Positions 4,360 to 59,237 of a stretch of 59,237 nt of DNA are shown one piece after another. The stretch's first letter is position 1. Each line of letters begins with the position of its first letter. Under the pieces are notes generated by a model, which worked only from the letters and a program-made list of their open reading frames with translations, made no database searches and was not told the DNA's origin. Source of the DNA: a virus (lineage: Duplodnaviria > Caudoviricetes). The stretch is from the IMG/VR virus record IMGVR_UViG_3300036852_000085, positions 1 through 59,237 of that record; one strand, written 5' to 3'. The position numbers were made by a program, and so were the translations under genes.

Positions 4360-4462
4360 TTTCCCCTGCTCACAGAGAGCCCCTCACGCCCTATGTAGAC
4401 CAGGCCGGACGGGGGCTCTCAGCTCACCGTGGGACCCTGAGCTAGACTGGACACACGGGCGC
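4360..4462. repeat. Left edge of segment R; inverted copy at 1-103
   Basis: Exact reverse complement of the window start. Confidence 0.97.
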
Positions 4463-4494
4463 TCAGCTCAGCCCAACGCTCAGCTCAGCCCAAC
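4461..4494 (+). repeat. 17-bp tandem duplication gctcagctcagcccaac x2
   Basis: Seen directly, at the point where the inverted copy stops. Confidence 0.85.
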
Positions 4495-4832
4495 CGGATA
4501 CCCCCCCCTCCCCCATTCGGCCAAGGCCTCAGTCTGTCCAGATAGGACAGTACACATAGGACACATAGAGATCCTTGATCATGAAGCCCAGCCCGACCCG
4601 AGCCCCCCTGTCCCCCTCACGTGCTGCGCCAGCCCAGACCTGAGCCCCCAACGCTCAACCCTGGGCCAGCCAAGAGGGAAATGATCATGGATCAGTTGTC
4701 CTGGCCTGCAAAGCCCAGCCTAACTTCTGACTACACCATAATCCCATGGCTCTTCTTCGATGTCTTGGATCGAGGGGTCTGGGTTGGCTGGGCCTGACGG
4801 GTGTCCTTGCCTCCATGGACTTATAAACATTG

Positions 4833-4893
4833 ATGTGCATCTTGATATGCATCTTTAAACCATGTGCATCTTCGACCTGGAAACATGTGCATC
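4833..4893 (+). promoter_or_regulatory. Four ATRTGCATC boxes upstream of the terS-like gene
   Basis: Copies at 4833, 4845, 4862 and 4885 in an AT-rich patch. Confidence 0.65.
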
Positions 4894-5256
4894 ATGACCG
4901 AGGTCGTGATCAACGGGATCACCGAGGAACAGATCAGCCAGGACGCACCTCGGATGAGGGCCCTGCTGGCCATGAGGTACGAGAAGATCTGGCAGACCTG
5001 CGAGCCGCACATCAACGGTGACCGTCAAGCCAAAGGACTGGGCAGCGATCCTCGCTTCATCGAGGCGGGGATCAGAGTGCTCAGGGATCTTGGGCGGCTG
5101 TACAAGCTGGACCGTCCCAGCCCTGGGGAACTGGTGCAGGCTACCGGGGTGGACGTGGCGGCGCTGGTGTCCACGCGCCTGGCTGAGCTGGAGGCTCGGA
5201 TGAGCCAGGCTGATCCTGGCCCGGGGGAGGCTGGGGAGCAGGAGACTCGTAGCTGA
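4894..5256 (+). CDS. Putative terminase small subunit-like helical protein
   Basis: DPRFIEAGIRVLRDLGRLYKLDRP resembles the C-terminal helical motif of actinophage TerS proteins; no TerS candidate lies beside terL. Confidence 0.45.
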   Translation: MTEVVINGITEEQISQDAPRMRALLAMRYEKIWQTCEPHINGDRQAKGLGSDPRFIEAGIRVLRDLGRLYKLDRPSPGELVQATGVDVAALVSTRLAELEARMSQADPGPGEAGEQETRS

Positions 5257-5527
5257 TCGGCACCCAGGTACGAGTTGCGCTGTCCAGAGTGAAGGCCTGG
5301 AGCAGCAGCACACCGGTCTTCTTGTTGAACTTCGTGCGTAGCCGGTCCTGGCCCAGGCTGAAGCGGCGCAGGGTCCGGTAGGCGCGTTGCCTGAAGGTGG
5401 CGACGTCCTCGTGGAAGTCCTGGCCGAGGGTCAGTTCCCACAGGTGGCCGTTGAGCCAGTCGACCCACGGGTAGTCGAAGTCTTCATCTCGGACAATTCG
5501 GTCGCGTGGACCGCGAGAGGTCGCCAT
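5141..5527 (-). CDS. Hypothetical protein (YPWxxWLxGxxWEL family-like)
   Basis: TACACT -10 hexamer 8 nt upstream of ATG 5527; the 3' end overlaps the convergent gene. Confidence 0.65.
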   Translation of the reverse strand: MATSRGPRDRIVRDEDFDYPWVDWLNGHLWELTLGQDFHEDVATFRQRAYRTLRRFSLGQDRLRTKFNKKTGVLLLQAFTLDSATRTWVPISYESPAPQPPPGQDQPGSSEPPAQPGAWTPAPPRPPR

Positions 5528-5552
5528 GGCCGCCGAGTGTAGCAGTAGTTCC

Positions 5553-5767
5553 GTAGAACCGTAAAACCGTAGAACCAATCTAGCCAAGATCAACTAAGAA
5601 AGCCCAGGTCAAGAGCTAGAGTTTTTTCGGTTTTATGAGACTGGTCAGAATCGGAAAGGGTAGGTAGTTAAAAGGGGTTGTCCGATTTGCCCTGGTCTGT
5701 GCTCGGGCCTCAGATTCTGTGGCCGCTACTTTCCTTTCGGGAGAATCTCATAAAACCGAAGAAACAA
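5553..5767. other. AT-enriched non-coding region, candidate origin or packaging site
   Basis: gtagaacc/gtaaaacc short repeats; 15-bp inverted repeat ttcggttttatgaga (5626-5640) / tctcataaaaccgaa (5746-5760). Confidence 0.4.
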
Positions 5768-5885
5768 TTTAGTGGGTGAAATGTCCCTGAATGTTCCCCT
5801 GGGGATCCTGGAGTCCTTAGCTTACTTCCAGGGGGAGGGGTATGGGAGTATAGTGGGGGGATGAAGACTGTGAGTGTGAGCTGGG
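5768..5885. repeat. Right edge of segment R; 118-bp inverted copy at 59120-59237
   Basis: Exact reverse complement of the window end. Confidence 0.97.
5826..5860 (+). promoter_or_regulatory. Leaderless sigma-A-type promoter with CCAGGGGGAGGGGTA box
   Basis: TTCCAG-N17-TATAGT-N6-ATG(5861); no SD sequence. Confidence 0.65.
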
Positions 5886-6454
5886 ACCTGGACCTTGTCG
5901 AAGAGATGGCCAAGGCCATCCGGGAGGCCCGGTTCCCTGGACATGGGACGACCTGGGAAGACACGCCCGCTAGGGCCCGGGGCTCGTATCTACGAGAGGC
6001 CGAAGCAGTGCTCAACGTCCTTGCCCAGGCCAAGGTCAAAGAAGAGGAGGCCCAAGCGAAGCAGTCTCTGCTTACTGAAGATCAGTTAGCTGAGCTGCTC
6101 CATAACGCCTATAAGCAGTACTACGGCTCAGTTCTGCCGCTATGGAAAGACCTGTCAGGATCAACAAAGGGTTCATACGTGGCAATGGCTAAGGCCATCC
6201 TGGTCGCCGGCCAGGAGCCGGCCACCGTTTCCGCAGCAGCAGTAACGACTATCCGTCAGGTAGGTCCTAACCTGCCTGACGGAATCCAGGAATGGATGTG
6301 GGTTGGCATAGGCGAGAATGCCAGGGCATTCTTGCTTTCCTCCGAGACGGCCGCTGAGACGTTCCTCCGCGAAAACGTGAATCGTCAGATTTTCAAGGTT
6401 CGCATCGTCGAGGCTCGACGGCACCACATAGCTCTCATCCCCAGCGATGAATAG
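5861..6454 (+). CDS. Hypothetical protein with an internally duplicated helical motif
   Basis: Two E-[ML]A..[IL].....W.D......SY...A.A[VI]L units. Confidence 0.8.
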   Translation: MKTVSVSWDLDLVEEMAKAIREARFPGHGTTWEDTPARARGSYLREAEAVLNVLAQAKVKEEEAQAKQSLLTEDQLAELLHNAYKQYYGSVLPLWKDLSGSTKGSYVAMAKAILVAGQEPATVSAAAVTTIRQVGPNLPDGIQEWMWVGIGENARAFLLSSETAAETFLRENVNRQIFKVRIVEARRHHIALIPSDE

Positions 6455-6752
6455 GACCCTGCCGTTACTGATGTTGGGGCTAGTCCTGGCCGGGCTACTG
6501 CTTATCGGCTCAGGGTTCAGTGGCGGCAGCCTGTCCACGCAGGTCAGGGCTACTGGCGTCAACATCGAGGTGACCTGGGACAACGGGAACTTCCTGAAGA
6601 CCCGGGACAGCTTCTATGCCGACGACGGGCACATCGCAGCAGTGCGGGTCTGGGGAGGCAACGCCTGCTGGATCACTATCAACGACCGTGTGGCTGACGC
6701 CAGAGAAGACGCGGGGGCGGTCACCTGTACCTGGAGTAGGGAGCAGACATGA
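6447..6752 (+). CDS. Secreted or membrane-anchored hypothetical protein
   Basis: N-terminal hydrophobic helix and a Cys pair. Confidence 0.75.
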   Translation: MNRTLPLLMLGLVLAGLLLIGSGFSGGSLSTQVRATGVNIEVTWDNGNFLKTRDSFYADDGHIAAVRVWGGNACWITINDRVADAREDAGAVTCTWSREQT

Positions 6753-7162
6753 GAGTGCTGGTGACAGGCTCACGTGACTGGGATGTCCGATACAAGATCA
6801 ACATGATTCTCAACGAACTGAAGGCCATGGCCGACATACTCAACTCTCAGCTGACCATCGTCCATGGAGCTTGCCCTACCGGGGCCGACTTCTACGCAGA
6901 CCAGTGGGCCAACTACCGTTCCGACGTTAAGGCCGAGCAGTGGCCAGCCAGGTGGGAGCTGTACGGGAAGGCGGCCGGTCCTCGCCGCAATGAAGCCATG
7001 GTCGACGCTGGCGCGGACATGTGCCTGGCGTTCCTGAGGGGCAATTCGCCGGGTACCAGTCAGACGATTGCTCTGGCCAGGACGGCGGGGATCCCCACAT
7101 TCGTGATCAACTACGAGAGCGTGGACCAGGAGATCGAAACCCTGAGTCCAGGCCCAGGTTAA
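6749..7162 (+). CDS. SLOG-superfamily protein (DUF2493/YspA-like)
   Basis: RVLVTGSRDW, IVHGACPTGAD, GKAAGPRRN and SPGT motifs. Confidence 0.88.
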   Translation: MRVLVTGSRDWDVRYKINMILNELKAMADILNSQLTIVHGACPTGADFYADQWANYRSDVKAEQWPARWELYGKAAGPRRNEAMVDAGADMCLAFLRGNSPGTSQTIALARTAGIPTFVINYESVDQEIETLSPGPG

Positions 7163-7172
7163 GGAGAAAGTT

Positions 7173-7376
7173 ATGCCCGAGCCCACAGGTCTTGGCACTC
7201 CCGACAGCGACGAATTCGGCGAAGTTCACTTCAAGTACCACGGCAGCGAAGACCCCAAGCCTGTCAGCTGGCCGGCGGCCACGATGGCATCTGTCGTCGT
7301 GATCTCCGTGATCACTGGCGTGGTCCTGGTGTGTTCGACCTGCGCGGGACTATTCAGCCAATGGACTATGAAATGA
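7173..7376 (+). CDS. Small membrane protein
   Basis: AAGGAG RBS; C-terminal TM helix. Confidence 0.7.
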   Translation: MPEPTGLGTPDSDEFGEVHFKYHGSEDPKPVSWPAATMASVVVISVITGVVLVCSTCAGLFSQWTMK

Positions 7377-8017
7377 CCGAGTATCAGAAGATTCCAGCCC
7401 CGTTCAAGCGACACGTTGAGGGTCCGAACCGCAACAAGCTGATCATCGGCGAGTGGAGCAGTCCTGAACTGGCGGCCCTGAAGAACATCAACTGGATCTG
7501 GACCGAGAAGGTTGACGGCACGAACATCAGGGTTATCTGGGATGGCCACAAGGTCCGGTTCGGTGGTCGCACTGACGCTGCGCAGATCCCAGCCAAGCTG
7601 ATCTCCGTACTTCAGGAGAAGTTCCCTGAGGAGTTACTGGAGGAGGCTTTTGGAGCCACGCCCGCAGTCCTCTACGGGGAGGGTTACGGAGCTGGGATTC
7701 AGTCCGGTGGTGTCTACCGGTCAGACATGAGCTTCGTTCTGTTCGACGTCAAGATCGACTCATGGTGGCTGCTACGGGCCAACGTGGAAGACATCGCGGT
7801 GGCCAAGCTGGGCATTGACGTGGTCCCCATCCTCTGGGTTGGCACGATCGAGGACGCGATTGCCCAAGTCCAAGCTGGTCTACAGTCTGCCTGGCGGCCG
7901 GCAACTCGACCCGAGCAAACTTGGGCCGAAGGCCTGGTTGGCGTGACCCAGGCCGGTCTGCTGGATCGTGGCGGAAACCGTATCATCGTGAAGATCAAGA
8001 CGAAGGATTTCCGGTGA
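7373..8017 (+). CDS. ATP-dependent RNA ligase (Rnl2-like nucleotidyltransferase)
   Basis: Motif I EKVDGTN, III LYGEGYG, IIIa FVLFDV, IV EGLVG, V KIK; ATGA overlap gives start 7373. Confidence 0.88.
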   Translation: MTEYQKIPAPFKRHVEGPNRNKLIIGEWSSPELAALKNINWIWTEKVDGTNIRVIWDGHKVRFGGRTDAAQIPAKLISVLQEKFPEELLEEAFGATPAVLYGEGYGAGIQSGGVYRSDMSFVLFDVKIDSWWLLRANVEDIAVAKLGIDVVPILWVGTIEDAIAQVQAGLQSAWRPATRPEQTWAEGLVGVTQAGLLDRGGNRIIVKIKTKDFR

Positions 8018-10696: not shown

Positions 10697-10995
10697 TCGT
10701 TTACGTGAGCATTGGCAACAGCGATAACAAGCTGACTCAAAAGGAGTGGGCTGACTTCATCGCAGATGTTGAAGACGACATTCAAGGTTCAATAGCTAGT
10801 ATTCATGAATCTTGGCTCTCTGCTTCTGATGTACCTTGGCAGAACGCCTGCTGGTGTATCGAGCTGGATGAGACTGCCTTCAATTTCAAGATCCAGGTGC
10901 AGCGACTGAAGGGAAACCTGCGCTCGCATGCTCAGGCTTACAGGCAAGATTCGATTGCTTGGGCTGAGGTCAAGGAAACAGAGTTCCTCGGATGA
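10693..10995 (+). CDS. Actinophage hypothetical protein
   Basis: VYVSIGNSDNKLTQxEW...PWQNACW...YRQDSIAW. Confidence 0.8.
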   Translation: MIVYVSIGNSDNKLTQKEWADFIADVEDDIQGSIASIHESWLSASDVPWQNACWCIELDETAFNFKIQVQRLKGNLRSHAQAYRQDSIAWAEVKETEFLG

Positions 10996-11756
10996 TCATC
11001 ACCGTCTACGGTGATCCTGCGCCCCAGGGGTCCAAGCGAGCCCTGGGGCGTAGCCCTGCCGGCAAATCCATCATGGTCGAGAACTCCACCAAGGTCATTC
11101 CTTGGCGTAATGACGTCAAGAACGCCGCCGAGCGGGCCGTTGCGGCTCTGGGCATGCCACCACCCATGGACGGCCCCCTGCTGGCCAGGATGGTGTTCAC
11201 CTATCCGAGGCCGAAGAGCCATTTCGGTACTGGGAAGAACTCGGACCGGCTTCGCCCGGATGCTCCGGAGCGTCCCTGCACCGTGCCCGACCTGTCTAAG
11301 CTGGTGCGCTCCACCGAGGATGCGATCAAGGGCCTGGTCTGGGTTGACGATGCCCGGGTAAGCGAGTACAGCCGGGTGGCCAAGGTCTGGGTCAACGAGG
11401 ATATCGAGGCTCTGGACCGTCGAGGAGTCATCATCACCGTGGTCCCTATCGGTCGGCGCGACGACAACGGCAGTGAGATCCATGTTCTGGAGTCTGGTCA
11501 GACGCTGGTGACGCACAGCCTGGCGAACTGTCGACGTAACCCATGGTGTGTCATCCATGTGCCCCGTCCGGGGCCATGGGAGTCCTGGCCGAGACTGTGG
11601 CGCGACGATCGGATGATGATCGAGCGCGTGTGTCCGCACGGAGTGGGGCATCCAGCCGTGGAGCAGATCGAGTGGTTCCAGGAACACCCAGAACGGCATT
11701 CTCTTGATCACGGGTGCGACCTGTGTCCTTGCATGCCCAGGGAGTTAGGTAGATGA
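10992..11756 (+). CDS. rusA: RusA-like Holliday junction resolvase fused to a Cys/His-rich domain
   Basis: GDPAPQGSK, F.YPRPKSH and PDLSKLVRSTEDAI..VWVDDARV motifs; C-terminal CVIH..ERVCPHGVGHP..HGCDLC. Confidence 0.82.
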   Translation: MIITVYGDPAPQGSKRALGRSPAGKSIMVENSTKVIPWRNDVKNAAERAVAALGMPPPMDGPLLARMVFTYPRPKSHFGTGKNSDRLRPDAPERPCTVPDLSKLVRSTEDAIKGLVWVDDARVSEYSRVAKVWVNEDIEALDRRGVIITVVPIGRRDDNGSEIHVLESGQTLVTHSLANCRRNPWCVIHVPRPGPWESWPRLWRDDRMMIERVCPHGVGHPAVEQIEWFQEHPERHSLDHGCDLCPCMPRELGR

Positions 11757-34131: not shown

Positions 34132-37100
34132 TCATTCCTCCTTCTTCGATGGTGGGTTCAGGTTACGGAAACCGATGGTTTCTATTTCCTTGATGGCTTG
34201 ATCTATGGCTCGGTCCAGCTCAAGCTTGCCTTCCTGGCTCTCGTGCCGATGATTGCGAAGACCCCGAACCTCTTGCAAGAGCCGGAACCCACTCAACTGG
34301 CCCTTCGACCACTTGTCAGCGATCTGAGCCAAGAGAGTCAGCTCAGAGGTGATCCTCTCTTCTCTGCCGGTCGCATCGTGGGTCCGCCTGGCAAGAGGGA
34401 TCTGCTCAAACTTTCGAGCGAGGTCCGCCAGAGGCTTCGGGGTACCAGAAGGAAGGGAGACGGTGCGCTTGGGTGCGTCCATCTCCTTAATGGCATTGGT
34501 CAGCTCGCTGCGCGCCTTACTTCCCTCAGGAAGACGCTCGGTAAGAGTCTTCAGCTCGTCAATCACTTCCTGGGAAGACTTCTTCCCTCGAACGCCATCG
34601 GTAGCGATCCGACCGGCCACGTTGGCCAGGGGCTCGCCGTCAACGTCGAGCTTCCTATCCTCGCCCATATAGCGAAGCGCTTTGCCGACAGCACTGTCTG
34701 GGTGGAACCCAACTTCTCCGCGACCAAACTCACCCCAGTGGTTCTTCAAGATATCTTTGTCAGAGAACTTGCCGGCCTGGATACCCGACTTGCCCGACAG
34801 TCGACGATCTTCCTCGGTGCTGTGGTCCCGGGTGGCCTTCCGGTTCGGCACGATGGTGAACAAGTGCTTCTTCTGGCCGCCTATCTCAACGGCCGCATCC
34901 CAGTCGCGCTTGTTCAGGATCTTCTGGTTGGACTGAGGCTCCAGGGCGCCCGCGTCTGATCGGTTCATCCGTAGCAGCGTGGCATCCTGTTCCTCGCGGG
35001 ACAGGCCTTCCTTGGTCAGCTCATCCCGCAGGTCCGCAAGTCCCACAGACAGGCCTGGACGGCGGGCGATCCTGTTGTAGGCGTTGCGTACCACGTCTTC
35101 CTGTTCAGACGCAGACAGCTTCTTCGCGGCACCCTTGGTCGCCTCGGCCTGGGCGCGCTCAGCGAGCCGACGCGAAGCAATAGAGCGAGCCGACGGCGCT
35201 TTAGCCTCTGGCTCGACCTTCTTCGCAACCTTGGTGGCTTTAGCTGCCTTAGCTGGAGCAGGCGCTTCGGGTCCGATGTTCTTAAAGGTGATCGCGTGGC
35301 TAGGCTCGTCAATTCCGATCTTGACCGCAGCCTCGCGATCACGACGTTGGAGTGCCTTGCGATTGGCTACTGGGATAACTCTGGCACCCTCGGTCTGGCC
35401 TCGTAGACCAAAGTCCACCAGAGCCTTGTCCACCTCTTCGCGCGAGTGCTTGTCGCCCAGCTCGTCCCGAAGATCAGCCAGACCGATGAAGTCGCCCTTC
35501 TTCTTGTTCTGCTTGGCAAGGACGGCGGAGTAAGCCTTCCTGATGTCGTCCTTGACGACGGCGGAAGCCTCAGGTGAGCTTCCCTTTCCTGTTGCCCTCT
35601 CCACCCCACGGCGGGCCAGCTCCCGTTTAGCCATCTCTGTAGCAATGTGATCCACGACTTGTTGCTTGGTCCGCGCCGAGGCCGGGACCTTGATGTTCTC
35701 CGCCTCGGCCTGTTTGCGAAGATCAGCAATGGTGGTCCGGGCAACAGCCTTCTTCAGCTCCTCTGGAGCCTCGATTTTGGCAACGGCCTTAGTTGCTTCA
35801 ATCTTCTTGCTGGCCCGAGTCGTCGTGGCACCTCCCTGCGCGGCCCGGTCCCGCAGGCTCTGCGCAGCTTGCCGATGACTCTCTTCCTGGGTAGTGAAAC
35901 CCTTGATCGCTGCGGCTGTCTCGTCCTCGTTCTTCTTCAGGTCAGCCGCGCTAGGACGGCCCTTGCTGTCCAGCACCTTGCGTCGCGCATCACCGCGCTC
36001 CTTGGCCATGCGGATCTGCGTGCGGAAGTAGTCGGCCGCCTGGTCATGCTCAACAGCGCCGGCCAACATGTTCTGCGGAGTCGGATCCGCTTCAACGCTC
36101 TTCTTGACCCGGGTATTAGTGCTGTACGCCTTCAAGGCGTCCATGGTCTTCCCGGCCGCCGGGGCAGCCTTCTTGGCTGGAACTGTCTCCGTGGACAGTT
36201 TCGGCTCGCGGGCTCGTCGGGACGTCTTCAGATGGGTGGCCAGACGCTTCAGTTCGGCTGCTTCGTGGCGTTGCTGGTCAAGCTGCTTGCGTAGCTCAAC
36301 TTTGCGCTCGTCTGAAGGATTGCCAATGTGGCCACCAAACCGGATCGCCGCGCTGTTCTCTATCGCAGAGACAGCCCTGTCCAGCTCCCGGCCTACCTGG
36401 GCAGGACTCTTCTTGTCTTCTGCCAGGTCCTGGCGAACGGTGTCCAGGATTGCCTTCCGATCCCGCACCACCTTGGGGTCCAGGTGGCCGATAGCCGTCT
36501 CAATGTCAGCACCCTTGGGGATTTCTCCCTTCCCAGCACCCACGGGCTCAACGACAGCCTTACCGACGTTGACCTTTTCTCCGCCCGGCAGTGTGGCCTC
36601 ATGTCCAGTGCGGCCCACACGTACCTTCTCGCCAGCCTTGACTCCTCCGCCGGGGGCTTCGTGAAGCTTCGGGTTGAAGCTGACCGTCTCACCACGCCGG
36701 CCGCCGGGCAGCCCGAGCTTGTTTTCGGTACGTAGCCGAGTCAACTCAGAGTCGATCTTCGACTTGTCGCCAGACCTGACGGCAGCCATCAGCTTCGAAA
36801 CATCAGCGCCAGGAGCGTTGGTCCGCTTGGCCCATGCCGCTACGCGAGATTCCATGGCTGCCGGGCTGGCGTCATTGTCCAACAGGTGGTCCAGCTCGCC
36901 AGCGATGTCTGCAATGTTGCGGGCTTTGTCTATGTTGGCCTGTCGAGAGACGGCAGCGTTCTCAGGACCAGCACCCTCCAGGAACTTGCGGATGTCGTCC
37001 TTGCGAGTGATCTTCGATGGAATCTTGACGTTGCGTTCCCGAGCAATGCGCCGAAGATCAACAACAGTAGCCTTCTCCGGAATCTCTCCACCAGTGCCGG

Positions 37101-39429
37101 CAGTCTTAATCCCAACCTCAGCACCCTTGACCCGCGAAACAGCGTCGTCCACAGCCTTGCGTTCGGCTGGCGACATGTCCTTCAGAACGCTCTCTTTGAC
37201 GTCCGGCCGCAACTTATCCAACAGGTGAGTAGTCAGCCGGTCAGCCGTACTGGCCTTTGGCTCAGTCGGCGTGGCGTTACCACCCTCCAAGTGTGCGCGG
37301 ATGTCGTCCTTACGCGTTAACTTGGAGGGGATCCGAACTCCGCGCTCCTTCGCGATCTGACGAAGCTGAGCAATAGTGGCGTTATCCGGGATGGCCCCGC
37401 TGACGCCCTCGCCCTTAGGCGCTTCAGCCTTGACGGCTGGCGTCCCAGCCAGCTTGAGGAGGTTCTTCTGGGCCTTTTCTCCACCGCTACGAGAGTCATG
37501 CTCGCGAGCCGTGTCAGCCAGGTACTTGACGACGGCAGCCTTGGTACGCACCCTGGCTGGGACTGGCATGTTGGCGTCTGATGCGATCCTGCGCAGCTCA
37601 GGAATCGTCTTCTTGCTCAGTGCTTCATGAACGTCAGGGTTGGTGGGGACTGACGGGGCTTCAGGGCTCGGCGTAGGCGCAGCCTTCTTAGCCACCTTGG
37701 CGGCCGGAGCGTGCGGGGATGGTCGAGCGATGATTGCATCAGCAATTCGAGTAAGGTTGCCATTTTTCCCCGGTTGACGTAGGCGACGGGCAGCTTCAGG
37801 CCGACTGATCTTCTTCCTGGCCACGTCGTTGGCCATCAGCGTCACGCCTGTACGCTCATGGTCGCTCAGGTCTGAGTCCTTGACTCCAGCCTTCTCCAGC
37901 CATACATCGGCAACCTTTTTCGCAGCCTCGTCAGTAGCCGCGTTCTTGGCTTGTGCCTCCTCATTGAACCTGGCGGCCGAAGCCTTGGCTTCCTCTGAAA
38001 CCTTGACCTGCTTGGCGGTCGGAGCAGGAGTCCGGGCCCGGGACTCACGACGGATCTCAGCCTTGTTGGGCATCTCCTCTTTCGAAATGACCTTCGGCCC
38101 ACGTCGGGGAGTGGCCTTCTTGGGAACTTCTGAAGCTGGAGTCTCCGCAGCTTTCGGCGCACCGAGGTTGAACTTCTCCTCGATCAGGTTGGCTAGCGCC
38201 TCCTGGGCCTTGATGTCATTGGGCAGCGGACCTGAGTCCGTGTTGGTCTTGATGTCGTCAGCCAGGGTGCCCTTGTTGTGCTCGATATCCGTGCGCAACT
38301 CACGCAGGGCGTCCTGAGGATGCTTCTTCCCGCTGACGACACCCAGGTAGGCACTGTTCCACTGCTTGCGGCGTGGACCCTCCGTGGGGGACGGGATGTT
38401 GGCATCCTTGACGGCCTGGCGGAAGTCAACCGGGCCAGCCGGAACCTCGGGGACGGCTGGGGCCTGAGGTACGCCAGAAGTTGCGCCCGGCTGAGCGGCC
38501 GGAGCCTTCGTACCCCCAGGGGTGAGGGCTTCAACTACGTTAGGCTCAGTACGTGGAGCTGACACGGGAGATGCTGGACCAGATTGTGTCGGAGCTTGAG
38601 CCGCCGCCGGAGCCGCTGACGGAGCTGCACTGGGAGCTGATGGACCGGATTCTGGCGCACTACCAGGGGTGGCTGGAGCGGCAGGAATCTCGCCTGGCTT
38701 CGCAGGAAGGTTCAGCGGAGCCGGAGCCGGCGGAGCCTCGTGAAGCGGAGTCGACTTCTCCTTCGGAGTCCCGCCAGGAGTAGCCACCGCCATCATGTAG
38801 TAGCCACCCTTGCCATCAGGGGTGACCTTGGTAACGCGCAGGTTCTGATCCGGGGTCAGCATGATCTCAGAGGTCGGGCTGCTAACCTGCGGAACAATCG
38901 CCTTCGTCCCAGCGGGCGTAGCGATGGTCATCTGGATATGCGGACCTGGCCCCGAGGGTGGGTTGGGCGTACCGATGTTGGCGGAGGTGAACCCCGGGTC
39001 ATGGATGAGCTTGCCAGTCAGTTCCTCAACGTTGGCGATGTTGTTTGGGTCTAGCCCGAACGCACTAGGTTCAACGGTCTTGGACAAGATCAGATCGCTG
39101 GGCAGTGGCTCCGCGCCCTTGAGCATCTGCGCTGCCTGCGGGTCAGCCTTGCCAGCCCGCAGGTTCGCGTTGACGTTGGAGAATCCCTTGACGAAGTTCG
39201 TGATCGCTGAGCCTTGATTGGTTCCCAGCCTATTCTTGCGGGACTCGTTGTGGATCCAGCTCTGAGCCTGCGCATCGCTACCGAACGTCTTCGGGTTGAA
39301 GCTGTCCAGGAACTTGGAGATGGCATCAGCGGCAGCCTGGGGCATCCGCCAGGTATTGCGGAAGCGCCCATGACTGTCTCTCGGGTGGAGAAACTCCTCC
39401 CGATCACCCCACGCTGACCCAGCTCCCAT
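34132..39429 (-). CDS. 1765-aa multidomain ('polyvalent') head-module protein
   Basis: HPRDSHGRF N-terminus, VIP2-like ADP-ribosyltransferase fold, four HeH/Rho-N-like repeats, GrpE-like beta domain, two winged-helix-like repeats. Confidence 0.85.
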   Translation of the reverse strand: MGAGSAWGDREEFLHPRDSHGRFRNTWRMPQAAADAISKFLDSFNPKTFGSDAQAQSWIHNESRKNRLGTNQGSAITNFVKGFSNVNANLRAGKADPQAAQMLKGAEPLPSDLILSKTVEPSAFGLDPNNIANVEELTGKLIHDPGFTSANIGTPNPPSGPGPHIQMTIATPAGTKAIVPQVSSPTSEIMLTPDQNLRVTKVTPDGKGGYYMMAVATPGGTPKEKSTPLHEAPPAPAPLNLPAKPGEIPAAPATPGSAPESGPSAPSAAPSAAPAAAQAPTQSGPASPVSAPRTEPNVVEALTPGGTKAPAAQPGATSGVPQAPAVPEVPAGPVDFRQAVKDANIPSPTEGPRRKQWNSAYLGVVSGKKHPQDALRELRTDIEHNKGTLADDIKTNTDSGPLPNDIKAQEALANLIEEKFNLGAPKAAETPASEVPKKATPRRGPKVISKEEMPNKAEIRRESRARTPAPTAKQVKVSEEAKASAARFNEEAQAKNAATDEAAKKVADVWLEKAGVKDSDLSDHERTGVTLMANDVARKKISRPEAARRLRQPGKNGNLTRIADAIIARPSPHAPAAKVAKKAAPTPSPEAPSVPTNPDVHEALSKKTIPELRRIASDANMPVPARVRTKAAVVKYLADTAREHDSRSGGEKAQKNLLKLAGTPAVKAEAPKGEGVSGAIPDNATIAQLRQIAKERGVRIPSKLTRKDDIRAHLEGGNATPTEPKASTADRLTTHLLDKLRPDVKESVLKDMSPAERKAVDDAVSRVKGAEVGIKTAGTGGEIPEKATVVDLRRIARERNVKIPSKITRKDDIRKFLEGAGPENAAVSRQANIDKARNIADIAGELDHLLDNDASPAAMESRVAAWAKRTNAPGADVSKLMAAVRSGDKSKIDSELTRLRTENKLGLPGGRRGETVSFNPKLHEAPGGGVKAGEKVRVGRTGHEATLPGGEKVNVGKAVVEPVGAGKGEIPKGADIETAIGHLDPKVVRDRKAILDTVRQDLAEDKKSPAQVGRELDRAVSAIENSAAIRFGGHIGNPSDERKVELRKQLDQQRHEAAELKRLATHLKTSRRAREPKLSTETVPAKKAAPAAGKTMDALKAYSTNTRVKKSVEADPTPQNMLAGAVEHDQAADYFRTQIRMAKERGDARRKVLDSKGRPSAADLKKNEDETAAAIKGFTTQEESHRQAAQSLRDRAAQGGATTTRASKKIEATKAVAKIEAPEELKKAVARTTIADLRKQAEAENIKVPASARTKQQVVDHIATEMAKRELARRGVERATGKGSSPEASAVVKDDIRKAYSAVLAKQNKKKGDFIGLADLRDELGDKHSREEVDKALVDFGLRGQTEGARVIPVANRKALQRRDREAAVKIGIDEPSHAITFKNIGPEAPAPAKAAKATKVAKKVEPEAKAPSARSIASRRLAERAQAEATKGAAKKLSASEQEDVVRNAYNRIARRPGLSVGLADLRDELTKEGLSREEQDATLLRMNRSDAGALEPQSNQKILNKRDWDAAVEIGGQKKHLFTIVPNRKATRDHSTEEDRRLSGKSGIQAGKFSDKDILKNHWGEFGRGEVGFHPDSAVGKALRYMGEDRKLDVDGEPLANVAGRIATDGVRGKKSSQEVIDELKTLTERLPEGSKARSELTNAIKEMDAPKRTVSLPSGTPKPLADLARKFEQIPLARRTHDATGREERITSELTLLAQIADKWSKGQLSGFRLLQEVRGLRNHRHESQEGKLELDRAIDQAIKEIETIGFRNLNPPSKKEE

Positions 39430-45314: not shown

Positions 45315-45388
<74 letters not shown>

Positions 45389-45409
45389 CTCCCTCTAGGT
45401 AGGGTCCAG

Positions 45410-49552: not shown

Positions 49553-49737
49553 TGGAACTCGTCGTGGCCGCCTGGAAGCGGCACCACCTCGAACGGCTCG
49601 TCAACCTGGAACTCGGGCGGGAACTTGATCACCCGGTGACTGAAGACGAGTTCGTGAGGGTGTGCGGCCTCAACCCGGGCACCAAGATCGTCTACGTCGA
49701 GGACTGGAGGGACGCAGATCATGGCCTGTACCCCTGA
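49552..49737 (+). CDS. Hypothetical protein
   Basis: Coupled start; fills the operon gap. Confidence 0.65.
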   Translation: MELVVAAWKRHHLERLVNLELGRELDHPVTEDEFVRVCGLNPGTKIVYVEDWRDADHGLYP

Positions 49738-49960
49738 GTGTCGTCAGCCCACGCCGGCCATGGCTCACTGCACTACCTGCCACCAAACCTGGGGTGGAGT
49801 TGGGGGGTTTGACGCCCACCGCAAAAACGGACAATGCGTCGATCCGGGCACTCTGGGTTACGTGGAGACGGACCAGGTCTGGCGTACCCCGATGAGCGAG
49901 GAGGCCAGGCAGCGGCTGATCAGTATCCGGCCTGATCACTCATGGCGCGCGGAGTACTAG
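49721..49960 (+). CDS. FDxHR-family Zn-binding protein
   Basis: AHCTTCHQTW....FDAHR..GQCVDP. Confidence 0.85.
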   Translation: MACTPECRQPTPAMAHCTTCHQTWGGVGGFDAHRKNGQCVDPGTLGYVETDQVWRTPMSEEARQRLISIRPDHSWRAEY

Positions 49961-56492: not shown

Positions 56493-56917
56493 CCGAATCT
56501 CATCACCACGAGCATGTCCACCCGGCCCTGATCGAAGGGGTCTGGAGGGTGCAGACGGTCGGGGCTCCGTACCCGGACCACGTCATGATGTTCCACCCGG
56601 ACGGAACGTTCCTGATCCACAACCCCAGCGGCGTCCAGGAAGAACCTGACTCCGGTACCGGTGGTACCCACGACAGCGTGGGTGTCGGGGCCTGGGAGCT
56701 GGACGGGCATAACATCATCGCCACGTTCCTGGAGCTGAACGCCTTCGTGAACAACCGTCAGCCGGCGCCGGACACTACGGTGACCATGAAACTGAAGCTG
56801 AGCTCCAAGCTCACCTTCAGCGGGGTGGCCGTTGACTCAGCCGGCCGGCACGTCACGCTGTTCGGTGGCCGCATTGAGGTAGATCGGGAGCTGGCCGCCA
56901 CACTGATTGTTCAGTAA
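56489..56917 (+). CDS. Lipocalin-like beta-barrel hypothetical protein
   Basis: LIEGVW, FHPDGT and GVGAW. Confidence 0.7.
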   Translation: MTESHHHEHVHPALIEGVWRVQTVGAPYPDHVMMFHPDGTFLIHNPSGVQEEPDSGTGGTHDSVGVGAWELDGHNIIATFLELNAFVNNRQPAPDTTVTMKLKLSSKLTFSGVAVDSAGRHVTLFGGRIEVDRELAATLIVQ

Positions 56918-57043: not shown

Positions 57044-57613
57044 TTACGCGACCGGCGGGGTACCCGGCTCCGGCGTCGGCTCAGGGGCAGCCTCCGGGGC
57101 CACAGCCTCCACGGCCGCGTCCAGGTTGTCGATGCCGGTCTGAATCGCCGCAGCCGCAGCCTCCTGGGCCGGGCTCAGCGTGCCGGCGGTGATGATGTCC
57201 AGCGCCCGCTGCACATCCTTGGTCAGCTCGGCCAGCTTTGCGCCGAGGCTGGCCTCAAGCTCGTCAATCGTGGTCATGAGTCTTTCCTCCATCTGGTTCA
57301 GTGCTGTCAGGATAACGACGACGGCGGCGTCCTGGTGGCCACAGTCGCATGAACAGTGCCCCATGGATGCTCCTTCCGGGAGTACCAGCTGGGGAGCGTC
57401 AGGTCCGTCCTTGTAATGCTTATACCCGATCTTGAGGGCAGCACGCAAAGCTGTCAGGACGTAGTTCGAGGCCACATGGGTCGTCTCAGTACTGTCCACG
57501 ATCGCCATGGCCCGTTTCCAGCCCCGGTCAAGACCAGCCTCGTAGCCCTCGGCGTAGATGTGACCTACAGCTGAGTTGGGGATCCTGATCGGGTCAGGAA
57601 GACGTGCGGTCAT
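57044..57613 (-). CDS. Hypothetical protein; coiled-coil C-terminal half with a strong internal start at 57364
   Basis: GAGGAG RBS at the first start; AAGGAG-N5-ATG at MGHCSCDC. Confidence 0.65.
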   Translation of the reverse strand: MTARLPDPIRIPNSAVGHIYAEGYEAGLDRGWKRAMAIVDSTETTHVASNYVLTALRAALKIGYKHYKDGPDAPQLVLPEGASMGHCSCDCGHQDAAVVVILTALNQMEERLMTTIDELEASLGAKLAELTKDVQRALDIITAGTLSPAQEAAAAAIQTGIDNLDAAVEAVAPEAAPEPTPEPGTPPVA

Positions 57614-57640
57614 CCTCATCTCCTCGCTTACCATCTCAGT

Positions 57641-57853
57641 ATGAGCGGTGCGGACTGGATCGGGATCATCGCGGCCATCGGTACGGCTGCGACCGCCGTT
57701 ATCGCAGCCTATGGTGCAATTCAGGGTAAACGTACCCATACTCTGGTCAACAGCCGTACCGACGCCATGCTGGCCCGACAAGCTCAGCTGGAAGCCGCTA
57801 TGCGTCGAGGGGGCGTGGATGTGCCGCCTGATCCCTCGCTAAGGCCTTCCTGA
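57641..57853 (+). CDS. Small single-TM coiled-coil protein
   Basis: Leaderless TACCAT-N6-ATG; TM helix followed by THTLVNSR. Confidence 0.72.
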   Translation: MSGADWIGIIAAIGTAATAVIAAYGAIQGKRTHTLVNSRTDAMLARQAQLEAAMRRGGVDVPPDPSLRPS

Positions 57854-57868
57854 TGACCTTGTAACACG

Positions 57869-58033
57869 TCATCGCCTACACCCCCTCTTCAGTTGCAGCA
57901 TGGCAAACATCAAGCTCAGCTCCTGGGCCATGTCCGCATAGAGTAACTTCAGCCGCAAGGCTTCGAAGTAGTCAGCTCGCCGGGCTCGCACGTCTTCCCA
58001 GCGACTGTGTTCGCCCCCATAACGGGGATTCAT
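57869..58033 (-). CDS. 54-aa hypothetical protein
   Basis: GGAGG RBS; ATGA overlap with the upstream microprotein. Confidence 0.6.
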   Translation of the reverse strand: MNPRYGGEHSRWEDVRARRADYFEALRLKLLYADMAQELSLMFAMLQLKRGCRR

Positions 58034-58182
58034 TTTGTGGGCCTCCGTGGTGGCGGTAAGCAGCCGACGTGACATCCATTGGTACGAGCATGTCCCATGC
58101 AGTGCCTTTTACGTTTCGCCGTGCAACCGTTGCACTGGCAGTTGCAGCTCCCTACGCTGTAGCACGGGGGGAAGGTAACCAT
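58030..58182 (-). CDS. Cys/His-rich microprotein 3 (50 aa)
   Basis: Translated by hand: MVTFPPCYSVGSCNCQCNGCTAKRKRHCMGHARTNGCHVGCLPPPRRPTK. Confidence 0.82.
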   Translation of the reverse strand: MVTFPPCYSVGSCNCQCNGCTAKRKRHCMGHARTNGCHVGCLPPPRRPTK

Positions 58183-58347
58183 TTAACCCTTCTTCTTTTT
58201 CGTGAAGACCGGAGGTATCTGCTTCTTGGGAACCGGGGTACATGAGATATGACACTCATTGCCATGCGAATAGCAGTCTGTACTATCGGCGTTACATCTC
58301 GCGCAATTACAGTAACAGCGCCCCGAATCCCTGCAATTTGCCGCCAT
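58183..58347 (-). CDS. Cys/His-rich microprotein 2 (54 aa)
   Basis: Translated by hand: MAANCRDSGRCYCNCARCNADSTDCYSHGNECHISCTPVPKKQIPPVFTKKKKG. Confidence 0.85.
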   Translation of the reverse strand: MAANCRDSGRCYCNCARCNADSTDCYSHGNECHISCTPVPKKQIPPVFTKKKKG

Positions 58348-58350
58348 TTT

Positions 58351-58512
58351 CTACCGCCTTCTCTTTGGAGGAGGCGGTAGTGCTCGCTTCTTCGGTGGCG
58401 CGGAACAGCTCAAGCAGCAGGCGTTGTTGTGATTACGGCAATGCGCGCTGCCACTGTTGCATCGAGGACATGAGCACATACAGAAGCCGGCATGTGGGCA
58501 GTTACTGGCCAT
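58351..58512 (-). CDS. Cys/His-rich microprotein 1 (53 aa)
   Basis: Translated by hand: MASNCPHAGFCMCSCPRCNSGSAHCRNHNNACCLSCSAPPKKRALPPPPKRRR; AAGGAG RBS. Confidence 0.85.
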   Translation of the reverse strand: MASNCPHAGFCMCSCPRCNSGSAHCRNHNNACCLSCSAPPKKRALPPPPKRRR

Positions 58513-58669
58513 CACTCTCCTTGATCAACCCTTCCGGGTCTTCTTCACGTACCCAGAACTCATTCAGGTTTCGCCACAACACCAGAGGCCAGCCACAGTG
58601 AGCACATTCGCCCACTATCTGACCCTTACTGCGGGAATCGTTTACAAGACGTACCAGCTCATTGGTCAA
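58502..58669 (-). CDS. 55-aa hypothetical protein with CAHCG
   Basis: Translated by hand from a TTG start with AAGGAGG RBS: MTNELVRLV...GECAHCGWPL. Confidence 0.65.
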   Translation of the reverse strand: MTNELVRLVNDSRSKGQIVGECAHCGWPLVLWRNLNEFWVREEDPEGLIKESDGQ

Positions 58670-59144
58670 GATGTCCCTCCTTCAGTTCCATCAACTTCTG
58701 CTCTACGTCGATTTGTCTGGAAAGCACGACTGCGGCCCTGATCTGGGTCAGCTGAAGAAGAGCCTCAGCGAACTCCTCGCTGCCCTCGATCTCGGCACCC
58801 TCGACGCCATCGGTGATCGGGCAGTCCTTATGGTCCAGTTCGTGGTGATACAGGGTGACCAGGACGTAGCAGTCCGGACGCCCCGGTACGTTCGGGTGGC
58901 AGAGGGGTTCACCGTTGAGTGACCCCCAGCCACTCTCGGCGTCTCCGCAAGGACGGCCGCAGTGTGCACAGGCAGGTAGAGGCATACGGACACTCCTAAA
59001 TGTGGGAGTAATCGGGCATTTCTTCGCGTGAAGGAACTCGGCGTCGGCCAGGATCTTCAACATCTTGGCCAGCGACCTAATCCTCCGGTACGGCCTGGTG
59101 GTCAGGGCACACCCATCAGCCCAGCTCACACTCACAGTCTTCAT
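58659..59144 (-). CDS. Zn-binding hypothetical protein; starts at 59144 (shared MKTVSVSW) or 58985
   Basis: CAHCG..LCHP...PDCY..VT motif; AGGAG RBS before MPLPAC at 58985. Confidence 0.7.
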   Translation of the reverse strand: MKTVSVSWADGCALTTRPYRRIRSLAKMLKILADAEFLHAKKCPITPTFRSVRMPLPACAHCGRPCGDAESGWGSLNGEPLCHPNVPGRPDCYVLVTLYHHELDHKDCPITDGVEGAEIEGSEEFAEALLQLTQIRAAVVLSRQIDVEQKLMELKEGHLDQ

Positions 59145-59237
59145 CCCCCCACTATACTCCCATACCCCTCCCCCTGGAAGTAAGCTAAGGACTCCAGGAT
59201 CCCCAGGGGAACATTCAGGGACATTTCACCCACTAAA
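59120..59237. repeat. 118-bp perfect inverted copy of 5768-5885
   Basis: Exact reverse complement, including the promoter and first 8 codons. Confidence 0.97.

Follow-up and report, generated by a model that had tools for sequence, protein, structure and literature searches.

What are the three very small, cysteine-rich open reading frames (ORFs) near the right end of the virus record IMGVR_UViG_3300036852_000085, and what might their products do? The window analyzed here is the whole of this IMG/VR record, 59,237 b in length, which is classed as linear with a CheckV completeness of 91%. A preliminary description of the window, made from its sequence, had proposed that the three ORFs belong to a new family of Cys/His mini-domains. 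The trio consists of the following:

ORF1, 58351-58512, minus strand: 53 aa from an ATG; 9 Cys and 3 His; tail SAPPKKRALPPPPKRRR; AAGGAG 4 nt upstream
ORF2, 58183-58347, minus strand: 54 aa; 8 Cys and 2 His; Asp at the usual His24 position
ORF3, 58030-58182, minus strand: 50 aa; 8 Cys and 3 His; ATG abutting the TAA of ORF2

An alternative GTG start lies one codon upstream in ORF1 (giving 58351-58515), and the ATG provides the M-A-x-N-C start typical of the family. We searched the six-frame translation of the whole window for the motif C-x3-G-x-C-x-C-x-C-x2-C-x(6-7)-C-x2-H-x(3-5)-C-[HC]-x2-C and found exactly three matches, all within ORF1 to ORF3, with none in 200 mononucleotide shuffles. The common Cys/His motif given in the preliminary description is thus present and peculiar to the trio. 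Cysteine accounts for 15 to 17% of each ORF. Over the 882 stop-to-stop segments of at least 40 aa, which include the frames of the trio, the Cys content averages 2.9%, with 10.3% at the 99th percentile and 16.0% at most. The cores of the three copies are 39 to 48% identical to one another but only 10 to 29% identical at non-ligand positions, which agrees with the earlier statement that the ligand spacing is conserved while the intervening residues have diverged.

A HMMER profile of the trio was run against 1.84 billion representative proteins and returned nine matches at E ≤ 0.001, eight of which are proteins of 40 to 64 aa that share the ligand pattern; the ninth, a 1045-aa repeat protein, is spurious. 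In a word-indexed protein database, an 11-sequence profile recovered nine members, all metagenomic and without an informative name or Pfam domain; the trio profile gave no match there, and a 40-sequence profile gave none at E ≤ 0.001. Because gene callers skip such small ORFs, we scanned DNA instead of proteins, with a pattern for the N-terminal motif that found at least 111 loci and a pattern for the C-terminal H-C-x2-H-x2-G-C-H-x2-C that found 53. Strict membership was defined as E ≤ 1e-4 to the family hidden Markov model together with the C-terminal ligand motif. By this definition, 34 of the 53 C-terminal-pattern loci are members, as are 7 of the 111 N-terminal-pattern loci among the matches listed. 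Mapping of loci to contigs places members on at least 26 other distinct IMG/VR viral contigs, which represent fewer independent lineages since several are near-duplicates, and three further contigs pass under looser criteria. Among metagenome contigs, 444 pattern matches yielded one relative, a single copy on a 187-kb contig, and one further scan of viral contigs yielded 168 matches and no relative. The census is a lower bound because the DNA patterns detect only part of the family. That the protein database yielded nine members, whereas the DNA scans yielded copies by the dozen on 26 or more viral contigs, shows how routinely small phage genes are missed.

In the reverse direction, a profile built from 72 members outside the window recognizes ORF2 (E = 6.6e-13), ORF1 (E = 3.4e-12), and ORF3 (E = 6e-11), and its next-best match among 1604 segments of the window has an E value of 0.0076. 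The profile search suggested in the preliminary description has therefore turned up homologues that conserve the Cys/His pattern, and we are nearly certain that the trio are real coding genes of a new family. The family has so far come only from viral and metagenomic contigs and looks restricted to uncultured viruses. Searching 50,697 GenBank phage records by tblastn with three members gave chance matches only (E ≥ 6), and megablast of the array region gave no match. A scan of 185,579 representative genomes gave 54 matches and no full-length member, with a pattern that fits about one third of the known members, and a profile search of 401 sampled genomes from the phylum of a Streptomyces genome gave no match. 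The apparent absence of the family from cellular genomes rests on sampled genomes.

The anatomy of the domain was derived from an alignment of 40 members for position counts and from 68 parsed members for spacing counts. C18, C32, and C36 are invariant (40/40), and C5, C11, C13, C25, H28, and H33 are present in at least 90% of the members, while C15 is found in 34, H24 in 35, G9 in 31, and A8 in 26 of the 40. The core from C5 to C36 has on average 34.9 residues, 8.1 Cys, and 3.4 His, and with a net charge of -0.15 ± 1.9 it is not systematically basic. His is replaced by Cys at H33 in two of the 40 members and at H28 in one, and such swaps would be expected of metal ligands. Rigid spacings are found at C5-x5-C11 (47/68) and H28-x3-C32 (63/68), a His precedes C25 in 65 of 68 members, and the loop preceding H24-C25 varies from 2 to 16 residues. 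The Pro/basic tails noted in the preliminary description are present in the trio, where the Pro/Lys/Arg-rich ends carry a net charge of +3 to +7, but they are not a family trait: 47 of the 68 members terminate 0 to 3 residues beyond the last Cys, and such tails are confined to a subgroup made up of the window trio, P0004, P0005, P0007, L141, and L027.

Judged from its crowded C-x-C-x-C-x2-C and H-C-x2-H-x3-C-H-x2-C ligands, the core probably binds metal. Since 10 to 11 ligands are packed into 35 residues, a shared multinuclear Zn (or Cu) cluster would be likelier than separate knuckles, and a cluster also suits the C-x-C-x-C run, the exchange of Cys and His at ligand positions, and the absence of secondary structure from the predictions better than independent zinc knuckles would. 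The core may be a new metal-cluster fold, as it is without a relative in Pfam, PHROGs, and NCBIfam and has only marginal matches in the PDB. Specifically, 40 members gave no match in Pfam at E ≤ 1, including the Wbl, iron-sulfur (Fe-S), metallothionein, DNA-binding, and PHD models, and no match in PHROGs at E ≤ 0.1. The sole match in NCBIfam was that of one member of 40 to TIGR04333 at E = 0.37. The FAM221 model PF14753 matched none of the 40 members and, at E ≤ 1, none of five family-bearing virus records. No match was obtained in PADLOC at E ≤ 1 for the three ORFs plus four operon neighbors, and ORF2 found no usable match in the ESM Atlas. With no characterized family in Pfam, PHROGs, NCBIfam, or PADLOC matched and the ligand pattern kept among homologues, the proposal of a new Cys/His mini-domain family stands.

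A profile search of the PDB (177,635 distinct sequences) gave two matches, the PHD fingers of BAZ2B and BAZ2A (4qf3 and 4q6f), with marginal E values of 0.021 and 0.041, respectively, from the 40-member alignment and 0.074 and 0.055 from a second alignment. The aligned stretch is the C-terminal two thirds of the family, in which C-x2-C ... C-x2-[H] ... G-C-H-x2-C lines up with the first six PHD ligands, PHD having C-x2-C where the family has C-x2-H. However, the family ends after H-x2-C without the final C-x2-C of PHD, and an extra N-terminal C-x5-C-x-C is conserved instead. Because that final pair is absent, with most members ending just beyond the Cys of H-x2-C, we regard the resemblance as a lead and not as membership. 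The C-x-C runs and a density of about 9 to 11 ligands in about 35 to 40 residues also recall, by loose resemblance, the Zn3Cys9 CXC and pre-SET clusters (tesmin, MSL2); these are eukaryotic and lie inside large proteins, whereas here His ligands are conserved and Pfam gives no match.

The family also resembles the bacterial metallothioneins (SmtA/BmtA and MymT), which are small, Cys-rich, and poor in regular secondary structure and combine C-x-C motifs with a few His ligands. The approximately 11 ligands of the family equal in number those of the Zn4Cys9His2 cluster of SmtA. The class traits of low mass, high Cys content, and C-x-C/C-x2-C motifs are all found, C-x-C-x-C-x2-C being conserved in the family. 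However, there is no detectable sequence relation and the motif order differs, and the present family is phage-borne, with arrays of old diverged paralogues and many aromatic residues. MymT and BmtA have 45 to 80 residues, according to a passage in PMC13519478. A further likeness is to Bacillus phage G, in which an approximately 35-copy zinc-ribbon expansion was suggested, in a passage of Iyer et al. (2021, PMC7824862), to supply specific transcription factors or structural DNA-binding proteins. There too, as that passage describes it, a single phage has a tiny Cys-based protein, which presumably binds Zn, in many diverged copies, but the ribbon has four Cys and belongs to a jumbo Bacillus phage, whereas about 8 Cys plus 3 His are found here, and the two are compared by description only. 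No description of the present motif or of phage-encoded metallothioneins was found in the literature, as judged from titles and abstract openings. Phages are already known to encode small Cys-based proteins that probably bind Zn and are sometimes expanded; what is new is the present ligand pattern and its recurrence in arrays.

Members commonly lie in tight, often overlapping tandem arrays, and single copies occur too. At E ≤ 0.01, we counted 10 copies in each of L205 and L244, 8 in L243, 7 in L222, 6 in each of L225 and L235, 5 in L197, and 3 in L203, and whole-record searches of five records gave 6, 4, 3, 7, and 1 matches. The overlapping tandem arrays of 8 to 10 copies outside the window are located as follows:

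L205, 1652-2975: overlapping tandem array
L244, 1995-3336: overlapping tandem array
L243, 1995-3103: overlapping tandem array
L138, 2447-6834: overlapping tandem array

The GC fraction of positive loci ranges from about 0.46 to 0.70, and one 12.9-kb contig with a GC fraction of 0.46 holds 8 to 10 copies in three clusters. Otherwise related phages differ in array copy number (6, 8, and 10). The expansion as a diversified array that had been proposed for the window is therefore seen both in its diverged tandem copies and in the larger arrays elsewhere. A DNA polymerase operon and a convergent endolysin cassette flank the array in nine contigs of one lineage; in a second lineage, genes for an endolysin and for other proteins of no known family follow immediately downstream of the array. 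No maturase, transporter, or regulator is consistently linked to the arrays, and no modifying enzyme was recognized beside the window array, as previously stated, or in five other annotated contigs. On a 166-kb viral record, one family domain starts a 218-aa open frame (L142, 11949-12605, plus strand), which could be a fused form or could reflect a missing stop in an overlapping frame.

To compare orthologues, copies with at least 55% identity in related arrays were matched, and codons were pooled per array pair. The proportions of nonsynonymous and synonymous differences (pN and pS) and the ratios of the corresponding rates (dN/dS), which are rough because dS is saturated (1.3-2.0), were as follows:

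L139 and L243: 5 of 6 copies with an orthologue; 211 codons; pN 0.155, pS 0.695; dN/dS 0.09, and 0.24 at non-Cys/His positions
L139 and L205: 2 of 6 copies with an orthologue; 81 codons; pN 0.079, pS 0.618; dN/dS 0.06, and 0.11 at non-Cys/His positions
L243 and L205: 3 of 7 copies with an orthologue; 128 codons; pN 0.166, pS 0.687; dN/dS 0.10, and 0.20 at non-Cys/His positions

Family orthologues in these arrays of other phages are under purifying selection. We placed 75 members in a maximum-likelihood tree. In no case do the copies of one genome group together, and orthologue pairs from different phages are well supported. The tree requires 3 changes for the 3 copies of the window, 6 for the 6 of L139, 7 for the 7 of L243, and 8 for the 8 of L205. 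The positions of the window copies in this tree are unresolved; each has outside relatives at 53 to 59% core identity, compared with 39 to 48% among the window copies themselves. Since copies never group by genome and cross-phage pairs are supported, the arrays are old sets of distinct paralogues, not recent amplifications, and they are inherited together, gaining and losing copies.

The trio sits in a short leftward operon with the following other genes and upstream region:

59145-59237, minus strand: operon upstream region, with a -10-like TATAGT at 59151-59156, 6 nt before the first ATG
58659-59144, minus strand: first operon gene; 161 aa; 8 Cys, including CAHCGRPC
58502-58669, minus strand: second operon gene; 55 aa; TTG start; one CxxC pair (CAHCGWP)
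57869-58033, minus strand: downstream coupled gene; 54 aa; ATG overlapping the TGA of ORF3 (ATGA)
57044-57616, minus strand: probable last gene of the leftward unit; about 189 aa; GAGGAG before the start

The three ORFs are translationally coupled genes of this operon. The tight packing described earlier is borne out by the gene junctions: the stop of ORF1 lies 3 nt before the ATG of ORF2, ORF2 and ORF3 abut (TAAATG), and ORF3 overlaps the next gene. The 55-aa gene overlaps each of its neighbors by 11 nt and has GGAGG 6 nt upstream. In all five genes that follow the first, a purine run resembling a Shine-Dalgarno (SD) sequence lies 4 to 9 nt before the start, and SDs are embedded in the last codons of the preceding gene (58354-58368, 58186-58200, and 58033-58050, minus strand). 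Thus, the purine-rich SD of ORF2 falls within the final codons of ORF1 (AAG AGA AGG CGG, K-R-R-R), that of ORF3 is GAAGGG within the K-K-K-G codons of ORF2 (AAG AAG AAG GGT), and that of the 54-aa gene is a GGAGG 8 nt upstream of its start, inside the tail codons of ORF3 (CGG AGG CCC, R-R-P). Because the SD of the next gene lies within those codons, the basic residues at the extreme C termini are partly dictated by translational coupling.

A gap of 250 nt separates the 54-aa gene from the approximately 189-aa gene, which has an HCSCDCGH motif and an Ala/Pro/Glu-rich C terminus, and the leftward unit (59144 to about 57044) is convergent with a plus-strand replication operon whose end is at 56917. 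By codon position, GC is 0.68/0.49/0.75 in the approximately 189-aa gene and 0.62/0.45/0.70 in the 161-aa gene, the latter being typical of window genes. As noted previously, the array is AT-richer than the genome (GC 0.545 compared with 0.613 for the window), and third-position GC in the trio is 0.56 to 0.63 compared with about 0.70 to 0.78 in neighboring genes; the odd codon-position GC of the trio arises from its many TGY and CAY codons. The 161-, 55-, 54-, and approximately 189-aa neighbors gave no known-family match in family-library searches. For the 161-aa protein, seven pattern matches in viral contigs included no relative, and the ESM Atlas gave nothing beyond sub-threshold viral hypothetical proteins. 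A consensus scan of the minus strand found no promoter or terminator, and an Rfam search found no match in the array. If the TATAGT is part of a promoter, the transcript of the first gene may be leaderless, as this element lies only 6 nt before the ATG. Two other ORFs were rejected as real genes: a plus-strand 119-aa ORF at 58242-58601, with atypical codon-position GC and no conserved homologues, and a 70-aa ORF at 57641-57853, also with atypical codon-position GC.

How might such proteins act? We propose that the core of about 35 residues would fold around a multinuclear thiolate/imidazole metal site, most likely with two to four Zn(II), and that the near-invariant C5, C11, C13, (C15), C18, H24, C25, H28, C32, H33, and C36 would make up its ligand set. 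This scaffold would carry a loop of very variable length plus diverged surface residues. As the copies are old and distinct, and each is conserved between related phages, each is proposed to be a small metal-stabilized binder with a partner of its own, which may be a host or phage protein or possibly a nucleic acid. The binders would be made in the infected cell as accessory host-interaction cargo, presumably acting in the cytoplasm. We favor this paralogue-specific binder over a bulk metal buffer because the non-ligand residues, though different from paralogue to paralogue, are under constraint in each group of orthologues, and because the core is not basic; the preference is tentative and falls somewhat short of an even chance. 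That the arrays are old and individually conserved paralogues suggests a set of specific functions rather than dosage, and should those functions be host takeover or counter-defense, the family would offer new inhibitors in compact form. A bolder form of the idea, which we consider speculative and rather unlikely, is that the proteins are the first members of a phage-specific multinuclear metal-cluster fold (about Cys8His3 in 35 residues), which would be a minimal scaffold displaying a hypervariable loop, with arrays of 2 to 10 anciently diverged copies acting as a modular toolkit in which each copy neutralizes a different host factor, such as a defense protein or a Zn-dependent regulatory protein. 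Such a toolkit would be a metal-based counterpart of the diversified inhibitor families, hidden below ORF-calling cutoffs.

Several observations weigh against the binder proposal. No neighbor family is common to the window array and the others. Of the sequencing runs listed, none is of RNA, and the runs X3 and X4 do not cover the array. The dN/dS values, already rough from saturation, come from arrays in other phages and not from the window trio. No diverged relative of the trio itself is present in the data searched, and since the only other contig covering it, from a second soil sample, is identical over 57697-59149, selection on the trio is not measurable. Purifying selection on non-ligand residues occurs in true metallothioneins as well and so stays compatible with a metal buffer, and the basic tails of the window copies would suit nucleic-acid binding. 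Finally, AlphaFold2 gave a mean predicted local distance difference test score of 51.6 for ORF2 with 40 sequences and 50.5 for ORF3 with 75 sequences, and no fold could be named; such low-confidence models are compatible with a metal-dependent structure and prove nothing.

The main rival is a phage metallothionein-like role, in which each core would coordinate a cluster of several Zn(II) or Cu(I) and the effect of the array would come from its capacity. The array would buffer or strip metal during infection, for instance by providing Zn to phage enzymes or by taking Zn or Cu away from host proteins. We judge this reading unlikely, although much about the proteins fits it: some 11 Cys/His ligands per 35 residues with C-x-C motifs, the absence of confident secondary structure from both AlphaFold2 models, the ligand count of the SmtA cluster, and the position of the array within 1 to 3 kb of an endolysin gene in two lineages. 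The size of MymT and BmtA, as given in the passage of PMC13519478, is also similar. If it were true, phages would be manipulating the metal supply in actinobacteria. However, none of the 40 members matches a Pfam metallothionein model, the one NCBIfam match is to an unrelated model, aromatic residues are common between the Cys, and many phages have a single copy. Moreover, an amplification driven by dosage would not be expected to give copies such as these, which are old, diverged paralogues whose orthologues are conserved and whose non-ligand residues are constrained (dN/dS 0.11-0.24). Zinc-finger-like regulators that bind nucleic acids, or proteins that coat DNA or RNA, appear more doubtful still. 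The basic Pro/Lys/Arg tails of the window copies and the marginal resemblance to PHD fingers would fit such a role, as would the proposal made for the phage G zinc ribbons in the passage of PMC7824862, but the conserved core is not basic, most members are tail-less, the tail ends are constrained by the SD of the next gene, and no DNA-binding family was matched.

Modified or secreted Cys-rich peptide precursors, whether matured by an enzyme from another locus or set free on lysis, are very improbable. Tandem arrays of diverged small ORFs are typical of clusters encoding precursors of ribosomally synthesized and post-translationally modified peptides (RiPPs), and the very weak hit of one member to TIGR04333 (Clo7bot) is to a Cys-rich peptide model. 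On the other hand, conservation runs through the whole peptide from residue 2 and the ligands begin at residue 5, leaving no leader-plus-core layout. Nor was a maturase, transporter, or signal peptide recognized in the window operon or in five other contigs (63 ORFs), a maturase elsewhere being possible, and the conserved His point to metal ligation over thioether or disulfide chemistry. The preliminary description, which had ranked RiPP precursors as less likely, is upheld by the lack of both a leader and an adjacent maturase. Iron-sulfur or redox-active microproteins are equally hard to credit. The proteins have many Cys, and actinobacterial phages carry Fe-S WhiB-like proteins, but the spacing is unlike the common 4Fe-4S and 2Fe-2S motifs, three conserved His are more typical of Zn sites, and no Pfam Fe-S or Wbl model was matched. 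That the trio are chance ORFs or non-coding DNA is hardly conceivable: the third-position GC below that of neighboring genes and the overlapping 119-aa plus-strand ORF would allow it, but independent homologues keep the ligand pattern in the same frame, selection on family orthologues is purifying, an SD-like run precedes all five genes that follow the first, and the motif is absent from all shuffles.

The window phage is an uncultured soil siphovirus that probably has an actinobacterial host. Its capsid protein matched 863 phage records, among which the 10 commonest organism names are all actinobacterial genera, with Actinoplanes phage phiAsp2 as the best match (45%). The actinobacterial host assumed in the preliminary description is therefore plausible. 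On another contig, the DNA polymerase adjoining an array is 48% identical to that of Mycobacterium phages, and from such comparisons the carriers of the Cys/His family look like actinobacterial phages, mostly of ordinary size. A related capsid protein is encoded by 90 of 97 candidate loci. The Cys/His family was absent from all 20 capsid relatives searched whole (40-69% capsid identity; 17 of them at least 90% complete). The family is accessory within the window phage's own lineage, and the array sits in a variable end region of the window phage.

Both ends of the window take part in perfect long-range inverted repeats, one of 118 nt (5768-5885 and 59120-59237), which contains the operon upstream region, and one of 103 nt (1-103 and 4360-4462). 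The two repeat junctions bound a segment of 1526 nt (4360-5885), and 59120 is a branch point of public contigs. In one run the repeat contig had a depth of 18.2 compared with 15.9 and 17.3, and in another its depth was 8.7 compared with 4.3 and 5.6. Four of the 20 capsid relatives are classed in IMG/VR as having inverted terminal repeats, and the sum of 59237 and 5767 is 65004, of which 59237 is 0.91, equal to the CheckV completeness. The phage may have long inverted repeats, either terminal or internal, or the pattern may stem from the assembly graph. Two unrelated genes, at 5861-6454 (plus strand, 197 aa) and 58659-59144 (minus strand, the 161-aa operon gene), share at least 93 identical nt upstream and their first eight codons (MKTVSVSW) because both begin inside the 118-nt repeat, which likely represents a duplicated, inward-facing promoter/start module.

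Elsewhere in the window, the segment 1-4359 has a GC fraction of 0.67 to 0.70 compared with about 0.60 in the rest and contains eight ORFs without a Pfam match; a direct repeat with a 15-nt period lies at 1530-1834, within a minus-strand ORF (1463-2353). A 1765-aa ORF (34132-39429, minus strand) between the capsid and portal/head-morphogenesis genes would encode an unusually large head-module protein and matches only short Rho_N, HeH/LEM-like, and endonuclease VII PHROG entries. A 79-aa ORF (49721-49960, plus strand) matches PF24071 (Phage FDXHR zinc binding domain; E = 3.7e-13) and is unrelated to the array. Other features are as follows:

6749-7162: YspA/SLOG-family protein (PF10686, E = 1.9e-12)
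7331-8017: RNA ligase (PF09414)
10992-11756: RusA resolvase
45315-45389: tRNA-Met, adjoining the terminase gene

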